Below, piece by piece: positions 2,085-30,250 of a stretch of DNA of 64,000 bases (its first letter is position 1; each line of letters starts with the position of its first letter). The notes beneath the pieces were generated by a model. It was not told where the DNA came from, did no database searches, and was given only the letters and a program-made list of their open reading frames with translations. This stretch comes from Candidatus Binatia bacterium (GTDB lineage: Bacteria; Desulfobacterota; Binatia; UBA9968; JAJDTQ01), in NCBI GenBank assembly GCA_951813575.1, contig OX638375.1, forward strand, positions 3,731,330 to 3,795,329. Reading direction: 5' to 3'. Made by a program: the position numbers and the translations under genes.

Positions 2085-2713
2085 GCAACAACCGCCGCCT
2101 CAACACTGCCATGCGCGCCTCGCGCCTGCCGGCGGTGAAGACCCTGGGGCAGTTCGACTTCGCCTTTCAGCCCAGCATCAAGCGCGAGCAGATCGAAAGC
2201 CTCCACGAGCTCGGCTTCCTGGACCGCCGCGAGAACATCATTTTTCTCGGTCCGCCGGGAGTCGGGAAAACGCACTTGGCCATCAGCTTGGCCATCGCCG
2301 CAGCCGAATCCGGCCGCCGCGTCTACTACGGAACCCTGACGGCGCTTATCGAGTCGCTCGTCGATGCCAAGGCCGCGGGCCAGCTCTCCCGAAGGCTCCG
2401 TGTGCTGACTCATCCTGCCCTGCTCGTGGTGGACGAGATCGGCTACCTGCCCGTCAGCCAGGACGGCGCCGTGCTCTTCTTCCAGCTCATCAACGCCCGC
2501 CACGAGCGCGCCTCCACCGTGCTCACCTCCAACAAGGGCTTCGAGGAATGGGGCGGCGTGCTCGGCGACGAGATCATGGCCACGGCCCTCATCGACCGGC
2601 TGCTGCACCACTGCCACATCGTCAACATCCGCGGCAACAGCTACCGGATGCGGGAGCACCAGAACCTCATGCGGTCCGCCTCCGAACAACGCCACGAGGA
2701 AGCGGTGCTGTGA
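2085..2713 (+). pseudogene. istB: istB AAA+ ATPase lacking its N-terminus
   Basis: KTLGQFDFAFQP, GPPGVGKTHLA Walker A, LLVVDEIGY Walker B, LIDRLLHHCHIVNIRGNSYR. Confidence 0.88.
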
Positions 2714-2896
2714 TGGCCGTGTCCCGCCAGACGCTCCTAGAGGCGAGGAGTTGGACTCCGGTCGCTACGCTCCCTCCGTCCACCCCCTCACCCAGGAGCA
2801 GACCCAACCGGAGGGCGTCTGTCCCGAACCGCCCCCCCATCAGAAGTGGGACATTTTCGATTGACACAAATGGGACATTTTCGACTGACATTGACA

Positions 2897-3441
2897 TGGT
2901 GTGGCCACGATGTGCCGGGTGCTGGGTGTCTCCCCCAGCGGGTACTACGCGTGGCGGAGGCGAGGGCGCTCGGGTCGTAGGCGGCGTGACGAGGAGTTGC
3001 GCGGGACGATCCGGACGATCCACAGGGCTTCCCGGGGCACCTACGGGGTTCCCCGGGTGCATGCGGAACTGGCGCGGGTGGGGTGCGGGTGAGCCGCAAG
3101 CGGGTGGCGCGTCTGATGCGCGAAGCCGGCCTGGCCGGAGTGAGTCGGCGCCGGGGCGTGCGCACCACGCACGCGGATCGCAGCCGCCGAGCAGCTCCGG
3201 ACCGCGTGGAACGCCGGTTCCGAGCCGATGCGCCGGACCGGATCTGGGTGGCTGACATCACCTACGTGCCGACCTGGACGGGGTTCGTGTACCTGGCTGT
3301 GGTGCTCGACGTGTTCAGCCGCAAAGTCGTGGGGTGGGCCATGGCTCATCATCTTCGCACTGAGCTGGTGCTCGCAGCGCTCAACATGGCGCTGGGACAG
3401 CGCCGCCCCCAAGGGGTCGTGCATCACTCTGACCGCGGCAG
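2897..3441 (+). pseudogene. IS3 element B OrfB, split by IS21 and truncated at HHSDRG
   Basis: Removing the IS21 and one TSD copy restores EHGVATMCRVLGVSPSGYY; the frame continues to WVADITY and HHSDRG, then breaks. Confidence 0.88.
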
Positions 3442-3532
3442 ACTCTCGGGTGGAGAACCCCATCCGAAGCCTTCAACGAACTGCTACTCTTATACCAGCG
3501 AGGACGTGTTGCGACGACCCCTTGAAACCGGC
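3441..3532 (+). mobile_element. IS30-family 3' remnant (transposase tail plus right IR)
   Basis: Translates TLGWRTPSEAFNELL...VATTP*, resembling IS30 C-termini; ends GTGTTGCGACGACCCCTTGAAACCGGC. Confidence 0.7.
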
Positions 3533-4470
3533 TTGACTGCCGCGGTCTGAGTGATGCACCAGCAACTCGGGCCGAGGCCGATGGGTCAGAGCCATGCCCA
3601 AGGCGTTCAACGCGAGTTTCCAGGTGATGCGATTCGACATCGCCCATCCGACCACCCGGCGCGAGTACAAGTCGAGCACCACCGCCAGGTACAACCAGCC
3701 ACAGCGCGTCCACACGTAGGTGATGTCCGCTGCCCACTTGCAGTTCTCGGCATCGGCGGTGAAGTCGCGCTCCAGCACGTTGGCTGCCACCGGATGGTGA
3801 TGGTCGGAGCGGGTGGTCACCCGGTAGCGGCGCCGGCGCTTGGAGCGAAGGCCCTCCTGGCGCATCAGACGCGCTACGCGGTGGCGTCCGACTGCCACGC
3901 CGCCCTCGACCAGGTCCCGGTGCACCCGCGGGTTGCCGTAGGTCCCACGCGACGCCGTGTGGCTCGCCTTGATGTTGACCAGCAAGCGGCGGTCCTCGCC
4001 TGCTCGCGTGCTCTCACGACGCCCACGCGAGGCGTAGAAGCCGCTTCGAGAGACCTCAAGCAGCCGGCACATCATGGTCACGGGAAATCTGGCCTTCTCC
4101 GCCTCGATGAACACGAACCTCATATCGATTCCTTGGCGAAGAAGGCCGTCGCTTTTTTTAGGATATCGCGCTCCATCCGTAGCTGCCGGTTCTCCGAGCG
4201 CAGCCGGCGTAGCTCATCGAGTTCGCCCGTGCTCACGCCCTCGCGCACACCAGCGTCCACGTCGAACTGGCGCACCCAATTGCGAACCGCCGATTCCGTC
4301 AAGTCCAGATCACGCGCGACCTCGCCGATCGAGCGTGGTCCCTCCTTGACCAGTTTGACCGTTTCGAGCTTGAACTCCTTCGAAAACCTCCGTCTCGTCC
4401 GACTCATGGTCGTCACCTCCAAGGCCATTATCGCCTCTTATCAGGTGTCCACCAAACCTAGGCAAGACCA
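3533..4470 (-). mobile_element. IS3-family element C, truncated at HHSDRGSQ
   Basis: Left end TGGTCTTGCCTAGGTTTGGTGGACAC at 4470; orfA 4120-4428; A-run frameshift; orfB 3533-4123 with WAADITY and HHSDRGSQ. Confidence 0.88.
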
Positions 4471-7193: not shown

Positions 7194-7942
7194 GTTCGCA
7201 CCCTCGAGTGACCGCCGAGGACTTCGATGCCGTCCTGTTCGATCTCGACGGCGTGCTGACCTCCACCGCCCGGGTCCACTCCGTGTGCTGGAAGAAGATG
7301 TTCGACGAGTTCCTGCGGCAGCGCGGCGCGGACACCGGCGATGCCTTCGTGCCTTTCGACCCGGACGGTGACTACAAGCGGTACGTGGACGGCAAGCCCC
7401 GCTACGACGGGGTCCGGAGTTTCCTGGAGTCGCGGGGAATCGAGTTGCCCGACGGCGACCCGGACGACCCTCCGTCGGCCTCGAGCGCGTGCGGCCTGGG
7501 CAACCGCAAGGACCGGCTGTTCAACGAGGTGCTGAACGCGGAAGGGGCGGAGACCTACGACGGCACCATCCGCTGGGCCCGGGCACTCCGCGGCCGGGGC
7601 ATGAAGACGGCTGTGGTGTCGTCCAGCAAGAACTGCAAGTCCATCATGGAGGCCGCGGGCATCGAGGATCTGTTCGACGCGCGGATGGACGGCGAGATCG
7701 CCCAGCGGCTCCGGATCCCGGGCAAGCCCGCGCCCGACACCTACCTCAGGGCCGCCGAGGAGCTGGGCGTGCGCCCGGAGAGAGCGGTGGTGGTGGAGGA
7801 TGCCCTTTCCGGCGTTCAGGCCGGCCGCGCGGGCGGCTTCGGCCTGGTCATCGGCGTGGACCGGCACGGCGACGCCGAAGCCCTTCGCGAGAACGGCGCC
7901 GACATCGTGGTGACGGACCTGGCGGAGATGCTGGACGAATAA
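7190..7942 (+). CDS. HAD hydrolase, beta-phosphoglucomutase family
   Basis: [29 protein letters not shown]; GTGA overlap with adk. Confidence 0.88.
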
Positions 7943-7960
7943 CGGCCCGGTTCCGGTCCC

Positions 7961-10948
7961 TCACCCGGCATCAGGAAAGAACCTCTCGTAGCAGGCGCGG
8001 ATACGATCCCGGCGTTTTTCGTAGTCCCGCAGCAAGGCAGCGCCCGGCGACCCGCGCCCCTTCTCCCCGTAGCCGAGGGCCAGGGCCACGGCCCGAAGCC
8101 GGCCCGGCTGGCGTTCCAGAACGTGGGTGTCCTGGTCCCGCTCGAGCCGCAAGCGATGGCCCAGGCGGCGCAGGAAGGTATACCCTTCCACCAGGGTCCG
8201 GTAGTCCCGGGCGCCGAGGAGCCGCAACTCCCGGAGCGCGGCCGCCGCGCCCAGGGTGTCCCGTTGGCGCAACGCGGCGTGTTGGTGCCCGAAACGCAAC
8301 TGCAGCATCTGCACCAGGAACTCCACGTCGACCAACCCGCCGCGCCCGGTCTTGACGTCGAATCGGGAGCCGTCCTCGCGCGCCAGCTCCCGCTCCATAC
8401 GCATGCGCAGCCCGTCGATCTCGTTCAGGTCTTCTCCGCTGAAGTTGTCCTGGTAGGCGAAGCGTTGGGCAATGGCCTCGGCGTCGGCGCCCAGCCCGGG
8501 ATCGCCGGCGACGAAACGGGCCCGGATCAGGGCCTGCCGTTCCCATAGCTGCGAGCTGGTCTCATGGTAGCGGCGGAACGCTTCGAGGGAGGACACCAGC
8601 GGTCCCGACCGTCCGGAAGGCCGCAGCCGCATGTCGAGCTGGTACGCGATCCCTTCGGCCGTCGGCGCGGAGAGGCAGGCGATGAGCCGCTGCCCGAGGT
8701 GTACGTAGTACTCGTGGGCGCCGGCACCGTCGGCGGCCTCGGCGCCGTCGGGGCTGTCGTAGAGAAAGATGAGATCCAGGTCGGAGTTGTACTCGAGCTG
8801 CCGCTCGCCGAGCTTGCCCATGGCCAGCACCGCGAAGCGTCCGTCTTCCGGGGCCTCGTGCCTGCGTTCCATCTCGCTCCGGGCCAGTCCCAGGGCCGCT
8901 TCGAGGCAGGCTTCCGCGAGGTCCGTCAGTTGCGCCACGGTCTCGGCGAAACCCAGCTCCCCGCCGAGATCATGGAGGCCTAGCCGAATGAACTCCTCGA
9001 TGCGGTAGCGTCTCAGGCGGTCGAGGCGCTCCTCGATGTCGCCGGCTTCGTCGATGGCGGCCTCCAGCTCCGCCAGCATTTCCGCGCGGGTCTTGGCCAC
9101 GCGCGTGAGATCCACCCGAATCAGGCTGTCCAGCAGCTCGGGCCGGTTGACGAACAGGACCGACAGGAACTGGCTGTTGGCGAACAGGTCGATGAGCAGG
9201 CGCGTGGTCTTGGGATTCTCCGCCAGCAGGGTGAGGAAGCCGGTGCGGGCGCCGATGCGGCGGCCGAACTCGGCCATGTGGTGCAGCGCCTGCTGTGGTT
9301 CCGCCGAGTCCAGGATGGTCTTCATCAAGGCCGGCATGAGGTCCCGCATGACCTTGCGGCGTTTGGGGCCGGGAGGGGTGGCGCCGCTTCCGTCCCGCAC
9401 CGCCAGCAGGTCCTCGTGGGCCTTGGCGGCGTCGGCGAATCCGCGTTCCTCGAGCTCCCGTACGACTCGTTCCCGTTGCTCCAGGTCCTGCCACACTTCG
9501 GCCTCGGGCCGGCCTCCCTGGGCGGAGATCTCTTTCCGCGCGCCGTAGAAGAGCCGGTCGAAGGCGCCGTGCACCACTCCGGTCTGCTTCCGGTAGTCGT
9601 TCCAGAAGGCATCGGTTTCACCCCCGGGCGGGTCGAGGTAGCCCAGCCGCCGCGCCAGGGCCCGCTGCCGGTCCGCCGCCGCCGGGATCTCATGCGACTG
9701 CTCGTGGGCGAAGATCTGGATCTTGTGCTCCGCGTCCCGGAGGAACCGGTAGGCGGCGCCGAGCGCCTCGCTCTCGGCCGCGGGGAGGTAGCCGCACCGG
9801 GCCAGCGCGGCCAGGGCGTCGAGGGTGCCGCGTTGCCGGATCTGGGGGTCGTACCCGCCGTTCACCAGTTGCAGGGCCTGGGTGAAGAACTCCACTTCCC
9901 GGATGCCGCCGTGCCCAAGCTTGAGATTCCGCTCGCGGCGGTCGCCGTCGGCGAGTTGTTGCCGTTCGATGCGCGCCTTCATGTCGCGCAGTTCCTCCAC
10001 CGTGGAATAGTCCAGGTAACGGCGGTAGACGAACGGCCTGACGTCGTCGAGAAAGGCTTCGCCCAACTCCACGTCCCCGGCCACGGGTCTGGCCTTGATC
10101 AAGGCCGAACGCTCCCAACACAGGCCCCAGGACTCGTAGTAGAGCAGCGCCGCGCCCACGGGTTGCGCGGCGGGTCCCTGGCTGCCCATGGGACGAAGCC
10201 GCAGGTCGGTGCGGAACACCAGGCCGTCCTCGGTAAGCTCGCCCATGGCGCGGGTCAGGCGTTCGGCCAGTTGGCCGAAGAACTCCGGCGGCGAGACCGC
10301 CCGGCGGTTCGCCGGCTCGTCGGTCTCGTACAGGTAGATGAGGTCGATGTCCGAGCTGAAGTTGAGCTCGCCGCCTCCCAGCTTGCCCATGCCCAGTATC
10401 ACGAAGCGGTTGTCCCGGGACGTGCGGGGAAGTTTCACGCGGCCGTGTTGCCGTTCGAGGCCGGCGCGGCAGAACCGGTAGGCGGCGTCCAGCATGACGT
10501 CGGCGAGGGTCGTCAGCTCCGCCATGGTTTCCTCCACCGGCGCCAGCGAGCCGAGGTCGCGGCCGCCGATGCGAAGGAACTCCCGCTGTTTGTGACGCCG
10601 CAACCGGCGGTAGAACCGTTCCGGAGTCTCCTCCCCGGAGGTCCGGCCGAGCTCCGCAGCATGCCGGGCGGACGACTTGGGTCCGGTGCGGATCACCCGG
10701 GTGAACGTCTCGGCCCATGCATCGCCCTCGTTGATGAGGATGTCCGCGAGGTAGGCGCTGCCGCCGAGGATCCGTAGCAGGATCCGCAGATCCGCCGGCG
10801 TCAGGCTTGCCAGCGGCGCGCTGCCGCCGGATTCCACCAGCCGGCCGAGTTGCACCAAGGCCGTGCCGGGGGACGCCGCCGATCGGGCCAGGCGTTGCAG
10901 CCGGCGCCGCTCGGACGGTGAGAGTCCTGTCAGGTTGCGCCTACTCAT
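7961..10948 (-). CDS. glnE: Bifunctional glutamine synthetase adenylyltransferase/deadenylase
   Basis: Two NTase domains: GMGKLGGGELNFSSDIDL and AMGKLGERQLEYNSDLDL; DLRLRP and DMRLRPSG. Confidence 0.93.
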   Translation of the reverse strand: MSRRNLTGLSPSERRRLQRLARSAASPGTALVQLGRLVESGGSAPLASLTPADLRILLRILGGSAYLADILINEGDAWAETFTRVIRTGPKSSARHAAELGRTSGEETPERFYRRLRRHKQREFLRIGGRDLGSLAPVEETMAELTTLADVMLDAAYRFCRAGLERQHGRVKLPRTSRDNRFVILGMGKLGGGELNFSSDIDLIYLYETDEPANRRAVSPPEFFGQLAERLTRAMGELTEDGLVFRTDLRLRPMGSQGPAAQPVGAALLYYESWGLCWERSALIKARPVAGDVELGEAFLDDVRPFVYRRYLDYSTVEELRDMKARIERQQLADGDRRERNLKLGHGGIREVEFFTQALQLVNGGYDPQIRQRGTLDALAALARCGYLPAAESEALGAAYRFLRDAEHKIQIFAHEQSHEIPAAADRQRALARRLGYLDPPGGETDAFWNDYRKQTGVVHGAFDRLFYGARKEISAQGGRPEAEVWQDLEQRERVVRELEERGFADAAKAHEDLLAVRDGSGATPPGPKRRKVMRDLMPALMKTILDSAEPQQALHHMAEFGRRIGARTGFLTLLAENPKTTRLLIDLFANSQFLSVLFVNRPELLDSLIRVDLTRVAKTRAEMLAELEAAIDEAGDIEERLDRLRRYRIEEFIRLGLHDLGGELGFAETVAQLTDLAEACLEAALGLARSEMERRHEAPEDGRFAVLAMGKLGERQLEYNSDLDLIFLYDSPDGAEAADGAGAHEYYVHLGQRLIACLSAPTAEGIAYQLDMRLRPSGRSGPLVSSLEAFRRYHETSSQLWERQALIRARFVAGDPGLGADAEAIAQRFAYQDNFSGEDLNEIDGLRMRMERELAREDGSRFDVKTGRGGLVDVEFLVQMLQLRFGHQHAALRQRDTLGAAAALRELRLLGARDYRTLVEGYTFLRRLGHRLRLERDQDTHVLERQPGRLRAVALALGYGEKGRGSPGAALLRDYEKRRDRIRACYERFFPDAG

Positions 10949-23797: not shown

Positions 23798-24643
23798 ATG
23801 CAGATCAAGACAGTCACGCTGTTGCATCCCGGCAACATGGGCGCCACCGTCGGCGCAGCCGTGCAGGGCGCCCGGGTGCTGTGGGTTGCCGCCGGACGGA
23901 GCGAAGGCACCCGACAAAGGGCCTCCAAAGCCGGTCTGGCGGATATGGCGACCCTGGCTGACGCCGTGGGCGAGAGCGATGCGGTGTTGTCCGTGTGCCC
24001 GCCCCATGCGGCCGAGGATGTGGCGGAGAGCGTGGCCGGACTGGGCTTTGGCGGGTTGTACGTGGACGCCAACGCCGTGTCCCGGGCCACCGCTCAAAAG
24101 GTGGGGGGGACCGTCGGCAAGGCCGGGGCGACCTTCGTCGACGGAGCCATCATCGGCCCTCCGGTGACCAAACCGGGAAGGACGCGCCTCTATCTTTCGG
24201 GCGCCGGGGCGGAGGGTGTAGCGAAGCTGTTCTCGGGGAGCATGCTCGATGCCCGGGTCATCGAGGGCGGCCTGGGCGCCGCCTCCGCGCTCAAGATGAC
24301 CTACGCCGCCTGGACCAAGGGCAGCGACGCGCTGATCCTGGCCATCCGCGCGCTGGCGGCGCGGGAAGGGGTGGAGGAGGCCCTGCTCCAGGAATGGGCG
24401 GGGTCCCAGCCCAACCTTCCCGGCAAGAGCGAGCGCGCCGCCTCCGTGGCGGCGCCCAAGGGCTGGCGCTACGTGGGTGAGATGGAGGAGATTGCCGCGA
24501 GCTTCGAAGCGGCCGGGCTCCCCGCTGGCTTCCACAAGGCCGCCGCCGACCTCTACCGCCGGCTGGCCCCGTTCAAGGACCGCGCCGACCCCGGCCCCGA
24601 GGTCAAGGAAGTCCTTGACGCCCTCCAGGATCCAGGCTCCTAG
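23798..24643 (+). CDS. NAD(P)-dependent oxidoreductase (6PGD NAD-binding plus DUF1932)
   Basis: LLHPGNMG, VLSVCPP, YVDANAVS, ASALKMTYAAWTKG, KGWRYVGEMEEIA. Confidence 0.85.
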   Translation: MQIKTVTLLHPGNMGATVGAAVQGARVLWVAAGRSEGTRQRASKAGLADMATLADAVGESDAVLSVCPPHAAEDVAESVAGLGFGGLYVDANAVSRATAQKVGGTVGKAGATFVDGAIIGPPVTKPGRTRLYLSGAGAEGVAKLFSGSMLDARVIEGGLGAASALKMTYAAWTKGSDALILAIRALAAREGVEEALLQEWAGSQPNLPGKSERAASVAAPKGWRYVGEMEEIAASFEAAGLPAGFHKAAADLYRRLAPFKDRADPGPEVKEVLDALQDPGS

Positions 24644-26268
24644 TGGTCCTCTTCTTCGACCTCGCTGGCCTTGACGCGCCGTGACTTGAGTTTCTCGCCG
24701 GTCTCGAAGTAGCGTCCCTCCACCGCCAGCTTGGCTTCCTCGTCCAGCTCGTCGTCCCACTGGCCCAGGGAATAGCCGTACCACGGCATCTTGGGCTTGA
24801 GAGGCGGCAGCATGAACTCCTCCCACAGCTCCCGGGCGTGCTCCATGTACTCCCGCTTGGGCAGCGACACCGGCGGGAAGGGTTCTTTCTGGATGGCATT
24901 GCACAGCATGCCCGACTCGTCCGCCGGCAGGTGGTAGGACACCACGTCCGTGCCCTTGTGATCGTCCTTGTACAGGAACGGCGGGGCGTGGCCCTTTTCC
25001 ATGCCGCCGATGATCTGCACGTCCTGGTGGGGCTTCATGCGGTAGCACATGGCCCAGAACACCGCCGCCTCGTCCGACGGATCGATGTCCTCGTCCACGG
25101 CGATGACGATCTTGCCGACGCCGGGGTGGAACGACGACGCGGCGTGGAGCGCGCGCCACACCTCGGCTTCCTTGGGCTTGCGCATCTGCACGATGACCAG
25201 CTTGTAGGTGTTGGTCAGGGGCTCGTGCATCTCCACCCGGATGACGCTGGTGATGCGGCAGTGGTCTCTCAGGTGCACCAGCATGAGCCGGTCGTAGCCG
25301 ATCTTGCGGATGACCGACGATTCGCTGGGGGTGAGCTGGCTGAGCCATGAGACGTAGATGGCGTTCTTCCGGTGAGTGATGGCGGTGACGTCCATGAACG
25401 GGTTCAACTGCCGCGGGTGCATGTAGCCGTGGGACTCGCCGAACGGTCCCTCGGGCTCCACGAACTCGGTGTTGAGGTGCCCTTCGATGACGATCTCGGA
25501 CTCCGCCGGCACCTGCAGGTCCACGGTCTTGCACTGGGCCATGCGGATGGGCTCGCCCACGAAGCCGCCGGCGATGGCCATCTCGTCCACGCCGTAGTCG
25601 ACCTTCTGCACCGAGACGTAGGAGACCACCGGCGGGGCGCCGATGACCAGGGCCGCCTCCAGCGGCTCGCCGCGCTTCTGGGCGTTCTTCCAGTGCAGGT
25701 AGATGTCCTGCCCCAGTCCGGACGGAAACACGCCCACGCGGGTGTTCGACTTGATCTGGCCCCGGTAGTTGCCGATGTTGCCGATGCCGGTCTCCGGGTC
25801 CTTGGTGATCCAGTGGGAGCAGGTGGTGTAGGGGCCGTTGTCGAACCCGGGGGTGGAGATGGGGACCGGGAACTTGTCCAGCCCTTCGTTCTCCACGGCA
25901 TCGCCCGTCATCACCACTTCATGGCACGCCGGGTCGGCCACCACCTGGGGCTTGATGGGATTGGAGAGGGCATGCTTCCACTTCGCGTCCATCTCGTCGG
26001 CGCTGTTGCAGCCCATGCCCAGGAAGTAGATGGCCCTGCTGCCGGCCAGCGCCCCCACCACCACGGGAAAGTCGAATTTGCGCCCGCGGGCGTCCGTGAC
26101 GTTGGAGAAGTACCACGCCTTGCGGTCCTCGTCGGGGATGCCGCCGCGGTACTGCCAGCGCACCAGCGGATGCAGCTCGGTGTCCTTGTTGATGGTCTGG
26201 TTGATGCGGCGCAGGTGCCCCGCCTCTTCGAGCATCCTCAGATGCTCATGTAGATCTGCATAACCCAT
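24640..26268 (-). CDS. UbiD-family (prFMN-dependent) decarboxylase
   Basis: DLHEHLRMLEEAG, NIGNYRGQ, AESEIVIEG, EPEGPFGESHGY. Confidence 0.9.
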   Translation of the reverse strand: MGYADLHEHLRMLEEAGHLRRINQTINKDTELHPLVRWQYRGGIPDEDRKAWYFSNVTDARGRKFDFPVVVGALAGSRAIYFLGMGCNSADEMDAKWKHALSNPIKPQVVADPACHEVVMTGDAVENEGLDKFPVPISTPGFDNGPYTTCSHWITKDPETGIGNIGNYRGQIKSNTRVGVFPSGLGQDIYLHWKNAQKRGEPLEAALVIGAPPVVSYVSVQKVDYGVDEMAIAGGFVGEPIRMAQCKTVDLQVPAESEIVIEGHLNTEFVEPEGPFGESHGYMHPRQLNPFMDVTAITHRKNAIYVSWLSQLTPSESSVIRKIGYDRLMLVHLRDHCRITSVIRVEMHEPLTNTYKLVIVQMRKPKEAEVWRALHAASSFHPGVGKIVIAVDEDIDPSDEAAVFWAMCYRMKPHQDVQIIGGMEKGHAPPFLYKDDHKGTDVVSYHLPADESGMLCNAIQKEPFPPVSLPKREYMEHARELWEEFMLPPLKPKMPWYGYSLGQWDDELDEEAKLAVEGRYFETGEKLKSRRVKASEVEEEDH

Positions 26269-26517
26269 TAGCTGCCTCCTGTTCGCGTCGATTTCTCGGA
26301 ATGTCGCGGTGAGTTCCCGTAACCCCGTGCGGCACAAGCCCGGATAGCGGGGCTCCAGGCGATCGGCGGAAAGAAACGGATGGCTCTCGTGCGAAGACTG
26401 AAAATAGCCGATGGGGTCGGACCCTGTCAAACCGCGTGCCCCGGCGGTGTCCCCGGGTGCGGAACGGGCCAACAGCGGAGGGTGCAGGCACTGTATTTGC
26501 GTCACCGTTGAAGCGTC

Positions 26518-26546
26518 TTGAGTGAACTTGGGGAAAGCGCTAGGGT
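26518..26546 (+). promoter_or_regulatory. Candidate promoter of the DUF4160 operon
   Basis: TTGAGT-N17-TAGGGT. Confidence 0.4.
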
Positions 26547-26576
26547 GGACAGAGCCGGTCCATCACTCGATGGCGG

Positions 26577-26813
26577 ATGCCTACGATACTGAGGCAGGGG
26601 CCGTACCGGTTCTTCTTCTACTCCAGCGATGGTGAGGAGCCCCGTCATGTGCATGTGGAGCGAGACGACAATGTGGCGAAGTCCTGGCTTGCCCCTGTTC
26701 GTTTGCAGACAATCGGCGGGTTTCGTCCAGCGGAAATCAGGCGTATTGCCGGTATTGTCGAGGACCATCGAAGGGAATTGGTAGAGGCGTGGAATGAGTA
26801 TTTCGGCAGTTGA
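26577..26813 (+). CDS. DUF4160-family protein (predicted toxin)
   Basis: MPTILRQGPYRFFFYSSDGEEPRHVHV...AKSWL...EAWNEYFG. Confidence 0.88.
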   Translation: MPTILRQGPYRFFFYSSDGEEPRHVHVERDDNVAKSWLAPVRLQTIGGFRPAEIRRIAGIVEDHRRELVEAWNEYFGS

Positions 26814-27747
26814 GACGAAAATGCCGAACGCCGTAAGCGTAGAAGTGTCCGGGAATGCGCTGGGCGTCAAGTTGAGCGATGGCAGGACGGTCTCTATTCC
26901 TGTGGACCAGTATCCGAGGCTTGCCTATGCCACGAAGCAAGAGAGGGCCAACTGGCGAATCATCGGTAGAGGTTACGGGATTCACTGGGAAGACCTTGAC
27001 GAAGACATAAGCGTGGAGGGTTTGCAGGCTGGCAATCGATCCGGGGAGAGCAAAACTTCCCTGACGGGCTGGCTAAGGGCGAGGCATCAACCGAAGTTCC
27101 ATCCCTGGCAGGGAGAAGGCTACGGCAGGGTAAATGACTTCGGCCTGCCGGCCAATCTCTTGATCCTCGGAGAATCCCACTACGGGAACCCCAGCGACTG
27201 GGGCCGCTGGCACGGCCAACCCACGGTCGGCGTAGTCCGCGAATACTGTAGAGGCGGCGGTTACTCTTTCTTCACAAAACTCATGCGCACGGTTCTGGGA
27301 CCCGACACTCCCGCGGACACGTCTGAACAGAGGACCGGGTTCTTCGAGTCCGTTGCGTTCTACAACTATGTCCAGTGCAGTGTCGGCAACGCTCCCGACA
27401 TACCTCCGACCCAAGAGGTGTGGGACGAGGCAGCAACTCCGTTTCGCACGACTTTGGAGTCATTGCGCCCAACGCACATCCTGGCGTGTGGAATGAGGTT
27501 GTGGGGCAACATGCCGGGGGCCGAGGAGGTCTGGTCGCCGCCGCCGAAGCCGCTGGTACACTGGTTCGACCCGTTCGACCCCATCGATTTCCCGACACGC
27601 TGGCCGCCTGAGAGTCTTTTGGGTTGTTACCTCCATGCTGAAGGGCAGAGCTTGGTTCTCGCCATCCATCATCCTTCCTGGAAGCGCTATCAACCGAGTG
27701 CCTGGCATCCGGTGGTGAAGCGGTTCCTGGAATACAGTGTCGGATAA
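26794..27747 (+). CDS. DUF2442 domain fused to a uracil-DNA-glycosylase-like domain
   Basis: N-term VKLSDGR...YPRL...GIHWEDLDEDISVEGL; C-term ILGESHY, FYNYVQ, LRPTHILACG, AIHHPS. Confidence 0.7.
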   Translation: MSISAVETKMPNAVSVEVSGNALGVKLSDGRTVSIPVDQYPRLAYATKQERANWRIIGRGYGIHWEDLDEDISVEGLQAGNRSGESKTSLTGWLRARHQPKFHPWQGEGYGRVNDFGLPANLLILGESHYGNPSDWGRWHGQPTVGVVREYCRGGGYSFFTKLMRTVLGPDTPADTSEQRTGFFESVAFYNYVQCSVGNAPDIPPTQEVWDEAATPFRTTLESLRPTHILACGMRLWGNMPGAEEVWSPPPKPLVHWFDPFDPIDFPTRWPPESLLGCYLHAEGQSLVLAIHHPSWKRYQPSAWHPVVKRFLEYSVG

Positions 27748-27791
27748 GCTCCCAGACGGGCGGTTCTCAGTTACACACACGGAGTTCACCC

Positions 27792-29084
27792 ATGCAAACC
27801 GATGAAGCCACGTTGCAGAAGGTCTTTTCCCACATCGACCGGGAGGAGCTGGCCCAGTTGGCCATGGACGTCGTCAACTTTCCCACGCCCACCGGGAGCG
27901 AGGAGGAGGTGGCGCGGTTCATCCACGACTGGCTCCAGAAGCAGGGCATCGAGACCTTCCTTCAGCACACCGAGCCCGGTCGCGCCAACGTGGTGGGGGT
28001 GATCCCGGGAACGGGCGGCGGTCCGACGCTGCTCTTCAACGGGCACATGGACACGGCCCTGTCGGGCGGGCAGGAGGATCTCTGGATCACCGGCAGCACC
28101 CGGCCCGAGTGGCAGGCGCTGGCCCGGCGGGAGGACGACGTCATCTACGGCAGCGGCATCGTCAACGACAAGGGGCCGCTCACCTGCACCTTGGCCATGG
28201 CCAAGGCGCTCAAGGAGAGCGGCGTCCGGCTCAAGGGCGATGTCATCGTCACCGGCGTGGCGGGCGAGATCGGGCGCTCGCCGGTGGACCACTACCAGGG
28301 CCCCGCCTACCGCGGCAAGGGGCACGGCGCGCGCTACCTGGTGACCCACGGCGTGGTGGGGGACTACTGCATCGTGGTGGAGCCCTCCCAGTTCCGCATC
28401 ACCTGGGCCCAGTGCGGCGCCGTGTTCATCAAGATCACCACCTACGGCGAGCCCATGTACGGGCCCTTCGTGGACCATCCGGTGGCGGCGAAGGACAGCA
28501 AGAACGCGGTGGTGCGCATGGCCTCCATCATCCCGGCGCTGGAGGAATGGGCGCGGCGCTACGAGCAGGAGCACCGCTACGAGTTCGGCGCCGGCACCAT
28601 GGTCCCCAAGGTCAACATCGGTTCGATCTTCGGCGGCGCGCCGTTCAAGCCCAACTTCTCCCCGGCCATCTGCAACCTCTACGTCGAGGCCTTCATGAAC
28701 CCGGAGCAACGCGCCGTCGACGTGCTGCGGGAGGTGCGGGCGGTCCTCGCGGACACGGACATCGAGGCCAAGTCCTCGCTCTTTCTGTCGGTCAACGGCT
28801 ACGAGTCCAAGGGCGCCGAGCCGTTGGTGTCGACCATGGAGGAAGCCCACGAGTACGTCCGCGGCCGCAAGGTGGAGCCCATCCGCAGCGCCTTCACCAG
28901 CACCTACGCGGACCTCACCGTGTTCGCGGAGGTGGGCATTCCGGCCATCAAGTGCGGCCCGGCGCCGGAAGCCGCCGACGCCAAGCCGGCCACCAGCGAG
29001 ATGCAGAAGGTGGAGGATCTCGAGGCCGCCGCGCGGATGTACGCGTTCGCCGCCCTGGAGATCGCCAACCGGGACCGGGCGTGA
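27792..29084 (+). CDS. M20-family metallo-amidase (ArgE/DapE-like, atypical ligands)
   Basis: FNGHMDT, NDKG, VVEP, dimerisation domain. Confidence 0.85.
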   Translation: MQTDEATLQKVFSHIDREELAQLAMDVVNFPTPTGSEEEVARFIHDWLQKQGIETFLQHTEPGRANVVGVIPGTGGGPTLLFNGHMDTALSGGQEDLWITGSTRPEWQALARREDDVIYGSGIVNDKGPLTCTLAMAKALKESGVRLKGDVIVTGVAGEIGRSPVDHYQGPAYRGKGHGARYLVTHGVVGDYCIVVEPSQFRITWAQCGAVFIKITTYGEPMYGPFVDHPVAAKDSKNAVVRMASIIPALEEWARRYEQEHRYEFGAGTMVPKVNIGSIFGGAPFKPNFSPAICNLYVEAFMNPEQRAVDVLREVRAVLADTDIEAKSSLFLSVNGYESKGAEPLVSTMEEAHEYVRGRKVEPIRSAFTSTYADLTVFAEVGIPAIKCGPAPEAADAKPATSEMQKVEDLEAAARMYAFAALEIANRDRA

Positions 29085-29155
29085 AGAGGTGGTGGCGGCG
29101 CTAGGCAGTTTGGCATAAGATTTCGTATTCAAGACGCTACGGAAAGGAGCCTTCC

Positions 29156-30250
29156 ATGAGCATCGATACGGGCCTTTACCGCCGGACCTTCAGGGGCACC
29201 GGCGGGGTCGCCACCGACGAGATTCTGTTCTCATCCGATTCCCATGTGATGGAGCCCGCGGACACGTTGGTGAGCCGGGTTCCGCAAGCCATGCGCGATG
29301 CCGCGCCGCGTTTTCCCGAGCTGAAAGTGGGGGAGGGGTTCCAGACCCATCCCGGAGGGTCGGACCCCAAGGCCCGGCTCAAGGAGATGGCGGTGGACGG
29401 GGTCAGCGCCGAGGTGCTGTATCCCACCTACTCGCTGAGCCTGTTCTCGCAGGAAGATGTCGCGCTCCACGAGGCGTCCTGCCGGGCCTATAACGACTGG
29501 CTCATCGAATACTGCCAGGTGGATCTGGACCGGCTCGTGGGCGTGCCGATGATCGCCACCTTCAACATCGACCATGCGGTGGCGGAGCTGGAGCGCTGCA
29601 AGAGGGCGGGGCTCCGGGGAGCGCTGATATGGCAAGTGCCGCCGACGGAGTTGTCCTTTGCAACGGACCACTACGAGCGCTTCTGGGCCGCCGCCCAGGA
29701 GATGGAGATGCCCGTCAGCGTGCACATCCTCACGGGCTTCGGCTACGTCAAGACGCGTTATGACCGCAAGGGCCTGGAACGCTACCGGGGCAGCGTCAAC
29801 CTCAAGCTGGCGGAAATCATCGACAGCCTGATGGACATCATCTTCTCGGGCGTGCTGGAACGCTACCCGCGCCTCAAGATCGTGCTGGTGGAGAACGAGA
29901 TCGGCTGGCTGCCGTACGTGCTGGAGCAGTGGGACTACTACTTCGACCGCCACCGCCCCACGGACCCGTTGACCATCGACAAGCTGCCCACCGAGTACTT
30001 CAACCGGCAGGTCTTCGCCACCTTCTTCAACGACGCCGTGGGCGCCCGCAACCTGGTCTGGTGGGGGCATGACAACTGCATGTGGTCCAACGACTTCCCC
30101 CACGCCAACTCCACCTGGCCGCACTCGCGGGACGTGGTGGCGCGGGACCTGGGTCATCTGCCCGACGACGTGCGCGCCAAGCTGCTGCGAGACAACGTGG
30201 CCCGGCTGTACAACATGCCGGTGCCCGCGGCCATGGCCGTGGAGGCCTAG
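29156..30250 (+). CDS. Amidohydrolase_2-family protein
   Basis: SSDSHV, VLYPT, PVSVHI, VENEIGW, WSNDFPH. Confidence 0.88.
   Translation: MSIDTGLYRRTFRGTGGVATDEILFSSDSHVMEPADTLVSRVPQAMRDAAPRFPELKVGEGFQTHPGGSDPKARLKEMAVDGVSAEVLYPTYSLSLFSQEDVALHEASCRAYNDWLIEYCQVDLDRLVGVPMIATFNIDHAVAELERCKRAGLRGALIWQVPPTELSFATDHYERFWAAAQEMEMPVSVHILTGFGYVKTRYDRKGLERYRGSVNLKLAEIIDSLMDIIFSGVLERYPRLKIVLVENEIGWLPYVLEQWDYYFDRHRPTDPLTIDKLPTEYFNRQVFATFFNDAVGARNLVWWGHDNCMWSNDFPHANSTWPHSRDVVARDLGHLPDDVRAKLLRDNVARLYNMPVPAAMAVEA

Follow-up and report, generated by a model that had tools for sequence, protein, structure and literature searches.

A DhiT/DhiA-type cassette with a fused antitoxin

The DNA analysed here, called the window below, is a 64,000-nucleotide stretch of contig OX638375.1 from a Candidatus Binatia bacterium, and the element in question is a two-gene cassette at window positions 26577-27747. 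This cassette is almost certainly a chromosomal type II toxin-antitoxin (TA) operon of the DhiT/DhiA type, in which the antitoxin is fused at its C-terminus to a divergent domain of the uracil-DNA glycosylase (UDG) superfamily. Its parts are the following, with lengths in amino acids (aa).

26577-26813, plus strand: dhiT-like toxin gene (DUF4160, 78 aa, HVHV motif; PF13711, E 4.2e-17, profile positions 2-65 of 65)
26794-27747, plus strand: fusion gene of 317 aa, DhiA-like antitoxin plus UDG-like domain, in a single open frame
26794-27084, plus strand: DUF2442 (DhiA-type) domain, aa 1-97, including the terminal helix ...SLTGWLRAR (PF10387, E 1.8e-20, aa 13-81)
27085-27744, plus strand: predicted UDG-superfamily-fold domain, aa 98-317 (220 aa), from fold and profile searches

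The two Pfam matches bear out the first-pass annotation of this DNA, which had named a DUF4160/DUF2442 TA-like pair, and the toxin domain is complete. DUF4160 and DUF2442 are the domains of DhiT/DhiA, a type II TA system validated in Dickeya dadantii 3937 (PMC8198452; see also PMC12065111), where the toxin gene comes first, the genes overlap, and DhiT inhibits growth and is neutralised by DhiA, with which it forms a complex that represses the promoter (PMC8198452). In the window the toxin gene also comes first, the two open reading frames (ORFs) share 20 nt (26794-26813), a junction found again in the toxin-intact syntenic loci, and the N-terminal domain of the fusion (N-domain) matches the DUF2442 structures 3k8r and 2x8n in a Foldseek search of PDB. 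The NCBIfam model toxin_DhiT (NF048015) gave the 78-aa toxin 21.3 bits (E 3e-4) against a cut-off of 100, which is below equivalog level, and the protein is a distant member of the superfamily and no equivalog.

It had also been claimed that a DUF2442 domain of about 97 aa continues without a stop into some 220 further residues, and a single ORF is indeed what we found. Short canonical DUF2442 antitoxins of other Binatia genomes align to fusion residues 1-98/99 and then end, which places the domain boundary correctly near aa 97-99 (about nt 27085). A second, canonical pair is present in the same genome (L112, 425-1079; C1:896724-897378), in which an 82-aa DUF4160 protein and a 139-aa DUF2442 protein are encoded with an overlap of 14 nt and the C-terminal tail of the DUF2442 protein is rich in Lys and Arg.

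The C-terminal domain and its motifs

Residues 98-317 (C-domain) had zero matches in Pfam, NCBIfam, PADLOC and PHROGs, and as a single sequence the domain had no significant match in PDB, where only a profile found UDG. Pfam PF03167 did not match the window protein and reached sub-threshold scores of 18-19 bits in the relatives P0161 and P0129, so that membership of the UDG superfamily rests on profile-profile and fold evidence. AlphaFold2 models had a predicted local distance difference test score (pLDDT) of 88.4 and a predicted template modelling score (pTM) of 0.79 for the full-length fusion, and 94.4 and 0.92 for the C-domain alone. When the C-domain was compared with PDB by Foldseek, UDG-superfamily enzymes accounted for all 50 of the 50 matches listed (E 3.8e-4 to 7e-2, probability up to 1.00, best match 4zby), the kinds being S. 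tokodaii and T. thermophilus family-4 UDG, TDG, MUG, UdgX, SMUG1 and UNG; the top matches in a viral structure library were also UDG domains. A hidden Markov model of 89 family members found the family-4 UDG 4zbx in PDB by hmmsearch (E 8e-5), and hhalign against family-4/5 UDGs of the same genome and its relatives gave a probability of 93.3% (E 2.7e-7, 178 columns). Foldseek, hmmsearch and hhalign agree in this with the first-pass annotation, and the modelled domain very probably has a UDG fold. Three motifs correspond to the active site of known enzymes.

27160-27183, plus strand: LILGESHY, aa 123-130, counterpart of motif A, Glu127 at 27172-27174 (alignment of 89 sequences, hhalign)
27355-27375, plus strand: AFYNYVQ, aa 188-194, Asn191 corresponding to the Asn with which UDGs recognise the base, at the end of strand beta-2 (hhalign)
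27667-27678, plus strand: HHPS, aa 292-295, counterpart of motif B with His293-Pro294 (hmmsearch, hhalign)

In the hhalign alignment LILGESHY pairs with MFVGEGPG (motif A), FYNYVQ with IANVVKC (base-reading Asn) and HPS with HPA (motif B), and both hmmsearch and hhalign place HHPS on HPAA/HPAY of family-4 UDG. PWxG near the N-terminus, LILGESHY, NYVQ and HP(S) are nearly invariant columns of the 89-sequence family alignment, in particular G126-E127, N191, the Q of NYVQ and H293-P294, and the motifs are kept in nearly all fusions; the UDG-like motifs quoted in the earlier reading of this sequence are present and lie among these columns. The C-domain retains three hallmark positions of the active site, namely Glu in motif A, the Asn that reads the base and His-Pro in motif B. 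Assignment to family 4 itself does not hold, as the positions of the four Cys ligands of the 4Fe-4S cluster vary within the family, and GESHY stands where family 4 has GE(A/G)PG. The genome encodes separate UDGs of family 4 and of family-5 type, so the C-domain is not needed for ordinary uracil repair. Some plasmid members carry the automated UniRef name 'Uracil-DNA glycosylase-like domain-containing protein', and the literature yielded no paper on the family motifs or on an antitoxin-UDG fusion, nor a described function.

These motifs bear on one alternative, namely that the UDG-like domain is a non-catalytic module that serves the antitoxin for DNA binding or oligomerisation (autoregulation, nucleoid tethering) and excises no base. 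Type II antitoxins usually have one part that binds DNA and a second that binds the toxin, the other DhiA of this genome bears its basic C-terminal tail in the place of the domain, and relatives of the domain are fused to winged helix-turn-helix and Zn-ribbon DNA-binding domains, all of which would suit such a role. Nevertheless we consider it quite unlikely, given that Glu, Asn and His-Pro are nearly invariant in fusions and standalone proteins alike, that no operator-like inverted repeats were found 5' of the toxin gene, and that a 220-aa enzyme fold would be a costly means of mere DNA binding.

Occurrence and double origin of the fusion

The cassette lies between two divergent catabolic genes and is lower in GC (0.56-0.60) than both flanks (0.65-0.70), in line with what had been noted at first. 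The flanking features are listed below.

24640-26505, minus strand: UbiD-family decarboxylase gene, divergent (Pfam UbiD, UbiD_C, UbiD_N)
26518-26546, plus strand: putative weak sigma-70-type promoter, TTGAGT-17 nt-TAGGGT (inferred, from conservation)
27792-29084, plus strand: M20 peptidase/amidohydrolase gene, 45 nt 3' of the cassette (Pfam Peptidase_M20)

We found the fusion at one syntenic site in 13 loci, which comprise 11 species-representative Binatia-type genomes, the metagenome contig L114 and the window, and in all 13 it is flanked by the UbiD and M20/amidohydrolase genes that are also seen in the window. The same in-frame junction is repeated in the 12 further loci, many of them on closed long-read chromosomes, and about 45 protein clusters of about 310 aa share the architecture; an assembly artefact or a lost stop codon is ruled out on both counts, and the search for DUF2442 joined to UDG that the first-pass annotation had called for shows that other assemblies carry the fusion too. 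Of 81 genomes sampled across the class, that of the window is the only one to have it, which limits the fusion to a narrow clade.

A second fusion, P0059 (262 aa), is encoded 3' of rpsB-tsf in an unrelated organism and overlaps an upstream DUF4160 gene. The toxin and DUF2442 parts of P0059 have no BLAST-detectable similarity to those of the window, and no duplicated end of tsf was found around its cassette. In the family tree the P0059 C-domain groups with a standalone protein (97 in the Shimodaira-Hasegawa-like approximate likelihood-ratio test, SH-aLRT), far from the Binatia clade (support 96), which is sister to the standalone proteins P0041 and P0044. These results indicate two independent DUF2442-UDG fusions, each with the toxin kept, and no other observation argues as strongly for joint action of the parts. 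The DUF2442-UDG antitoxin fusion is previously undescribed and arose at least twice.

Several apparent cases were rejected. P0032, which looked like a standalone C-domain at the syntenic site, is a gene-calling artefact, and its contig L114 encodes an intact toxin and the full fusion (2175-3624); the public calls miss the toxin and the DUF2442 half there and give a 231-aa shadow ORF on the reverse strand instead. Such gene calls make the C-domain look standalone, and architecture counts built on them therefore underestimate fusions. Conversely, L015, L052 and L062 are standalone genes, and their tblastn extension into the N-domain was spurious. Among genomes of the same genus, G039 and G082 were tried as clean empty sites and lack the whole gene cluster, and G074, tried as a naive empty site, has a deletion scar instead. 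In G074 about 200 nt (L119, about 7840-8041; G074:C1:2356000-2366500) replace the cassette (window equivalent 26419-27786), and a 22-nt stretch there resembles the last fusion codons, which makes a scar likely; the M20 gene of this genome is also internally deleted (window 28018-28486), and an inversion affects the gene at window 23798-24643. Another Binatia genome has a standalone UDG-like paralogue of 33% identity elsewhere on its chromosome (L014 7989-8648; OY282432.1), and P0036 suggests that it carries a fusion copy as well.

With regard to the promoter that had been ascribed to the cassette, the plus-strand block 26518-26546 is kept in the five closest loci (the window, L001, L002, L005 and L010), while the sequence further 5' diverges, and we retain it as a putative cassette promoter. 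Its match to the sigma-70-type consensus is 7/12, however, which is under the scan threshold, and the consensus scan of the cassette region called zero plus-strand promoters and zero intrinsic terminators. The listed UbiD ORF is probably too long at its 5' end, with a likely start near 26269 (MGYADLHEHL...); the UbiD orthologues in L003, L004 and L008 align from ORF residue 69-70 or so. With this start an intergenic region of about 300 nt would be shared with the cassette, and a minus-strand promoter-like site lies in it at 26430-26401. On the other side, identity of the M20 gene is 94-99.5% across 11 loci, namely the window and L001-L010.

The wider GESHY/NYVQ/HPS family

A profile search of 1.84 billion representatives (50% identity clusters) returned at least 4,652 clusters at E <=1e-3, 1,156 of them at E <=1e-30. 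Most members are standalone proteins of about 200 aa; in relatives the domain is fused to an AAA_15/AAA_21 ATPase, an FtsK-gamma winged helix, DUF6530, VWA, DnaJ-type zinc fingers or Zn-ribbons, and other relatives have N-terminal extensions of no recognised family. The neighbourhoods of 69 standalone genes are heterogeneous, and the defence-type neighbours among them include PDC-S01, WYL, LeoA/BC, IetA and PDC-S45. One standalone member in a Stellaceae metagenome-assembled genome (L052, about 7600-8830) directly follows a UbiD-family gene of the same orientation. The window cassette, too, has a UbiD-family gene as its neighbour, but this is one case in 69 and probably coincidence. In five Flavobacteriia loci a DUF6140 gene (71-73 aa) adjoins the standalone gene, abutting it in three, and the two may form a two-gene unit.

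L034, 639-857: DUF6140 gene
L038, 4674-4892: DUF6140 gene
L046, 7729-7947: DUF6140 gene
L035, 8625-8837: DUF6140 gene
L057, 8804-9019: DUF6140 gene

The family is present on 108 plasmids, 81 of them conjugative, and on 0 of 50,697 phage records in three different queries. Its presence on plasmids and absence from these phage records is the signature of a gene in host-mobile element conflict and fits defence and anti-defence alike. The plasmid contexts examined include the leading region of an IncF conjugative plasmid, beside an orphan methylase, ArdA and SSB, and an IncN plasmid, beside a methyltransferase-helicase pair. On ColE1-type plasmids of 2-3.7 kb the family gene is the sole cargo, and motif A there reads GLSHY (Glu to Leu). 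Three short-form plasmid members come from Enterobacteriaceae.

L109, 7001-7417 (CP057089.1): short-form member
L110, 2398-2928 (NZ_CP069652.1): short-form member
L111, 6992-7531 (AP028958.1): short-form member

Proposed mechanism

How type II TA systems sense their triggers is, to our knowledge, a long-standing question, and we know of neither a trigger nor a target for DhiTA, while the only job that we know of for the UDG fold is flipping and inspecting DNA bases. An antitoxin joined to a base-inspecting fold offers a concrete and testable trigger hypothesis, namely DNA chemistry. By analogy with Dickeya DhiTA, we propose that the DUF2442 half would bind and neutralise DhiT and co-repress the operon, and that the UDG-like half would be a base-flipping reader or a glycosylase for a non-canonical, probably pyrimidine-type, DNA base, one that the cell's own family-4 and family-5 UDGs leave alone. 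The covalent link would then make antitoxin availability depend on the state of the DNA. The toxin could be freed when the glycosylase half is engaged or trapped on target or abasic DNA, when the UDG-like half is blocked by an inhibitor, or when it is degraded, and the freed DhiT would arrest the cell, which would make the cassette a conflict module that resembles abortive infection and is directed at invading DNA. MUG, TDG and UdgX typically bind their product tightly.

That the domain acts on DNA in a genetic-conflict role we regard as fairly probable. The model in which DNA-state sensing by the fusion releases DhiT is the one that we prefer, and we hold it tentatively; the independent recurrence of the three-part architecture in P0059 speaks for coupling. 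Purifying selection on the toxin and on both halves of the fusion, the fast and mosaic evolution of the cassette (see the next section) and the presence of other UDGs in the genome also count in favour of this reading. The first-pass annotation had proposed that the domain would sense modified or uracil-containing phage DNA, or a phage UDG inhibitor, and release the toxin as a candidate defence system; its reading is supported in part, for the TA pair and the conserved fusion to a UDG fold, while sensing, release and defence stay hypothetical. A conflict or defence role is kept plausible by the double fusion with a toxin, by the spread on plasmids and not phages, by the fusion of one relative to an AAA_15/AAA_21 ATPase and by the precedent of the Brig glycosylases (see the last section). 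Further, one may speculate, with the chances clearly against it, that GESHY/NYVQ/HPS proteins, which are widespread on chromosomes and conjugative plasmids and not on phages, form within the UDG superfamily a functional family of their own, whose members would recognise or cut out a non-canonical base of foreign DNA and, in DhiA fusions, serve as the sensor releasing DhiT.

If such a sensor releases DhiT, this would be the first TA system with a DNA glycosylase domain as its trigger, and one that evolved independently at least two times. The C-domain in any event marks out a very large branch of the UDG superfamily that has no name of its own and keeps the active-site positions, and whose substrate could be a new modified base or whose role could be defence or anti-defence. 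Were it only a stabilised payload, the cassette would still be a useful example of TA cassettes capturing enzymes.

Selection, loss of the toxin and alternative readings

The toxin is intact in 9 of the 13 syntenic loci, with a median ratio of nonsynonymous to synonymous substitution rates (dN/dS) of 0.19 among these 9 genes, and the fusion ORF is intact in 12. Among the 11 fusion ORFs measured, dN/dS was 0.07-0.35 for the N-domain (0.49 in the pair L007-L010) and 0.13-0.45 for the C-domain; values above 2 for UbiD were alignment-frame artefacts and were disregarded. By these ratios toxin, N-domain and C-domain are all under purifying selection. At the same time the cassette (26577-27747) diverges several-fold faster than the flank 27792-30250 in loci L001-L010, with C-domain dN up to 0.41 and dS up to 1.6 against dN of at most 0.05 and dS of 0.1-0.46 in the flanks. 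Between L003 and L004 dS is 0.06 in the N-domain and 0.68 in the C-domain, and this contrast marks the cassette as a mosaic and suggests allele exchange at a fixed chromosomal site. In L011 (8001-8953), from a Binatia-type metagenome-assembled genome, the toxin is truncated at its N-terminus and a frameshift lies in the middle of the fusion; the locus is a pseudogene, or else the short-read assembly contains an error there.

Several observations weigh against release of DhiT by a DNA-sensing fusion. The toxin is deleted or truncated (internally or at the N-terminus) in 4 of the 13 loci, L003, L004, L008 and L011, and in the toxin-less L003, L004 and L008 the fusion ORF is intact, with dN/dS of 0.07-0.19 for the N-domain and about 0.4 for the C-domain. 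Retention of the fusion under constraint in these three genomes means that it has a toxin-independent role, with constraint on the enzyme half somewhat relaxed there. The Binatia cassette is inherited vertically at one fixed site amid conserved catabolic genes, outside defence islands, and the fusion matched nothing in PADLOC or PHROGs. Around the standalone genes a PADLOC-matched neighbour was present in only about 8-10 of the 69 loci, a count without a matched control, and the leading-region plasmid context would fit anti-defence as well as defence. The TM-scores of the C-domain against known UDGs are only 0.41-0.61, and filamentation was not reported when DhiT was overexpressed.

Part of this evidence fits well with the main alternative, which we consider somewhat unlikely: the UDG-like domain would be autonomous, as a Brig-like defence enzyme or a specialised repair glycosylase, and DhiT/DhiA would only stabilise it by addiction, the fusion doing no more than tie this payload to the selfish cassette, with no signal passing between the halves. 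The family is overwhelmingly standalone, standalone members are the sole cargo of small plasmids, Brig1 and Brig2 act as single genes, and the fusion outlives the loss of the toxin under purifying selection. But two independent fusions with an upstream toxin are not obviously expected of parts that do not interact, the C-domain ratio rises to about 0.4 in the very genomes that have lost the toxin, and dhiTA was not prominent as a plasmid stabiliser in the Dickeya study (PMC8198452).

The same losses could also be read as the end of a selfish element, that is, an old insertion in the course of being lost, whose fusion has no current function. Besides the toxin deletions in four loci and the frameshift in L011, the near-complete deletion with a 3' scar in G074 and the motif-degenerate metagenomic variants P0024, P0037 and P0046, which are without some of the residues at catalytic positions, point this way. 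We hold this to be highly improbable, since dN/dS is well below 1 for toxin, N-domain and C-domain (9 toxin genes, 11 fusion ORFs), the fusion ORF is intact in all but one locus, and the active-site motifs are kept in almost all fusions.

Comparison with known systems

The window cassette resembles Dickeya DhiT/DhiA in both Pfam domains, in the order with the toxin first, in the overlapping ORFs and in a toxin of about 80 aa. It differs in that the antitoxin has 317 aa with a 220-aa UDG-fold appendage and in that the toxin scores 21 vs 100 bits.

DarG consists of a macrodomain and a toxin-binding domain, and CapRel(SJ46) is a fused sensor-type TA defence protein; a second activity or sensing surface on an antitoxin can couple toxin release to an infection cue. 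As in these proteins, one polypeptide of the window joins predicted toxin neutralisation to a second domain, which in those systems provides an activity or a sensing surface, but the folds and toxins are unrelated. The likeness could be taken further, with DhiT modifying DNA bases, the UDG-like domain removing the adduct and DUF2442 binding the toxin, so that neutralisation would have two modes. DarTG, with an antitoxin that has both an enzymatic reversal domain and a toxin-binding domain, is an established precedent (PMC11825919), and the antitoxin-enzyme fusion recurs. Such a scheme seems very unlikely all the same, as nearly all DhiA antitoxins are without the domain, the family is mostly standalone with no DhiT nearby, reports of DhiT overexpression do not mention filamentation, and base excision leaves an abasic site, which is damage and not reversal.

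Compared with family 4 (UDGa), family 2 (MUG/TDG) and UdgX, the window domain shares the fold, the order of elements, Gly-Glu in motif A, the Asn of beta-2 and His-Pro in motif B, whereas sequence identity is 12-16% to family-4 UDG, TDG and UdgX and 8-9% to MUG. Unlike family-4 UDG it is without the Fe-S cysteines and has GESHY in place of GE(A/G)PG; an extra conserved N-terminal element, F-x-PW-x-G-x-x-Y, and, in the subclade of the window, some 40 aa inserted between beta-3 and beta-4 further set it apart from known UDGs.

A further parallel on the enzyme side is with Brig1 and Brig2, anti-phage DNA glycosylases of UDG fold (PMC11078745; bioRxiv 10.1101/2025.10.29.685425). The GESHY-family motifs were not found in the part of the Brig supplementary tables that was covered, and the parallel is one of fold and genomic setting. 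Like the window domain, the Brig proteins have a divergent UDG fold with no Pfam UDG match and with S. tokodaii family-4 UDG 4ZBY as the best structural match, and they are likewise accessory, horizontally moving genes in regions of lower GC. They are, in contrast, single genes, and the window domain is joined to a TA antitoxin and lies outside a defence island. The module is a variant that combines two known kinds, a DhiTA toxin-antitoxin pair and a Brig-like accessory protein of UDG fold with predicted glycosylase activity.

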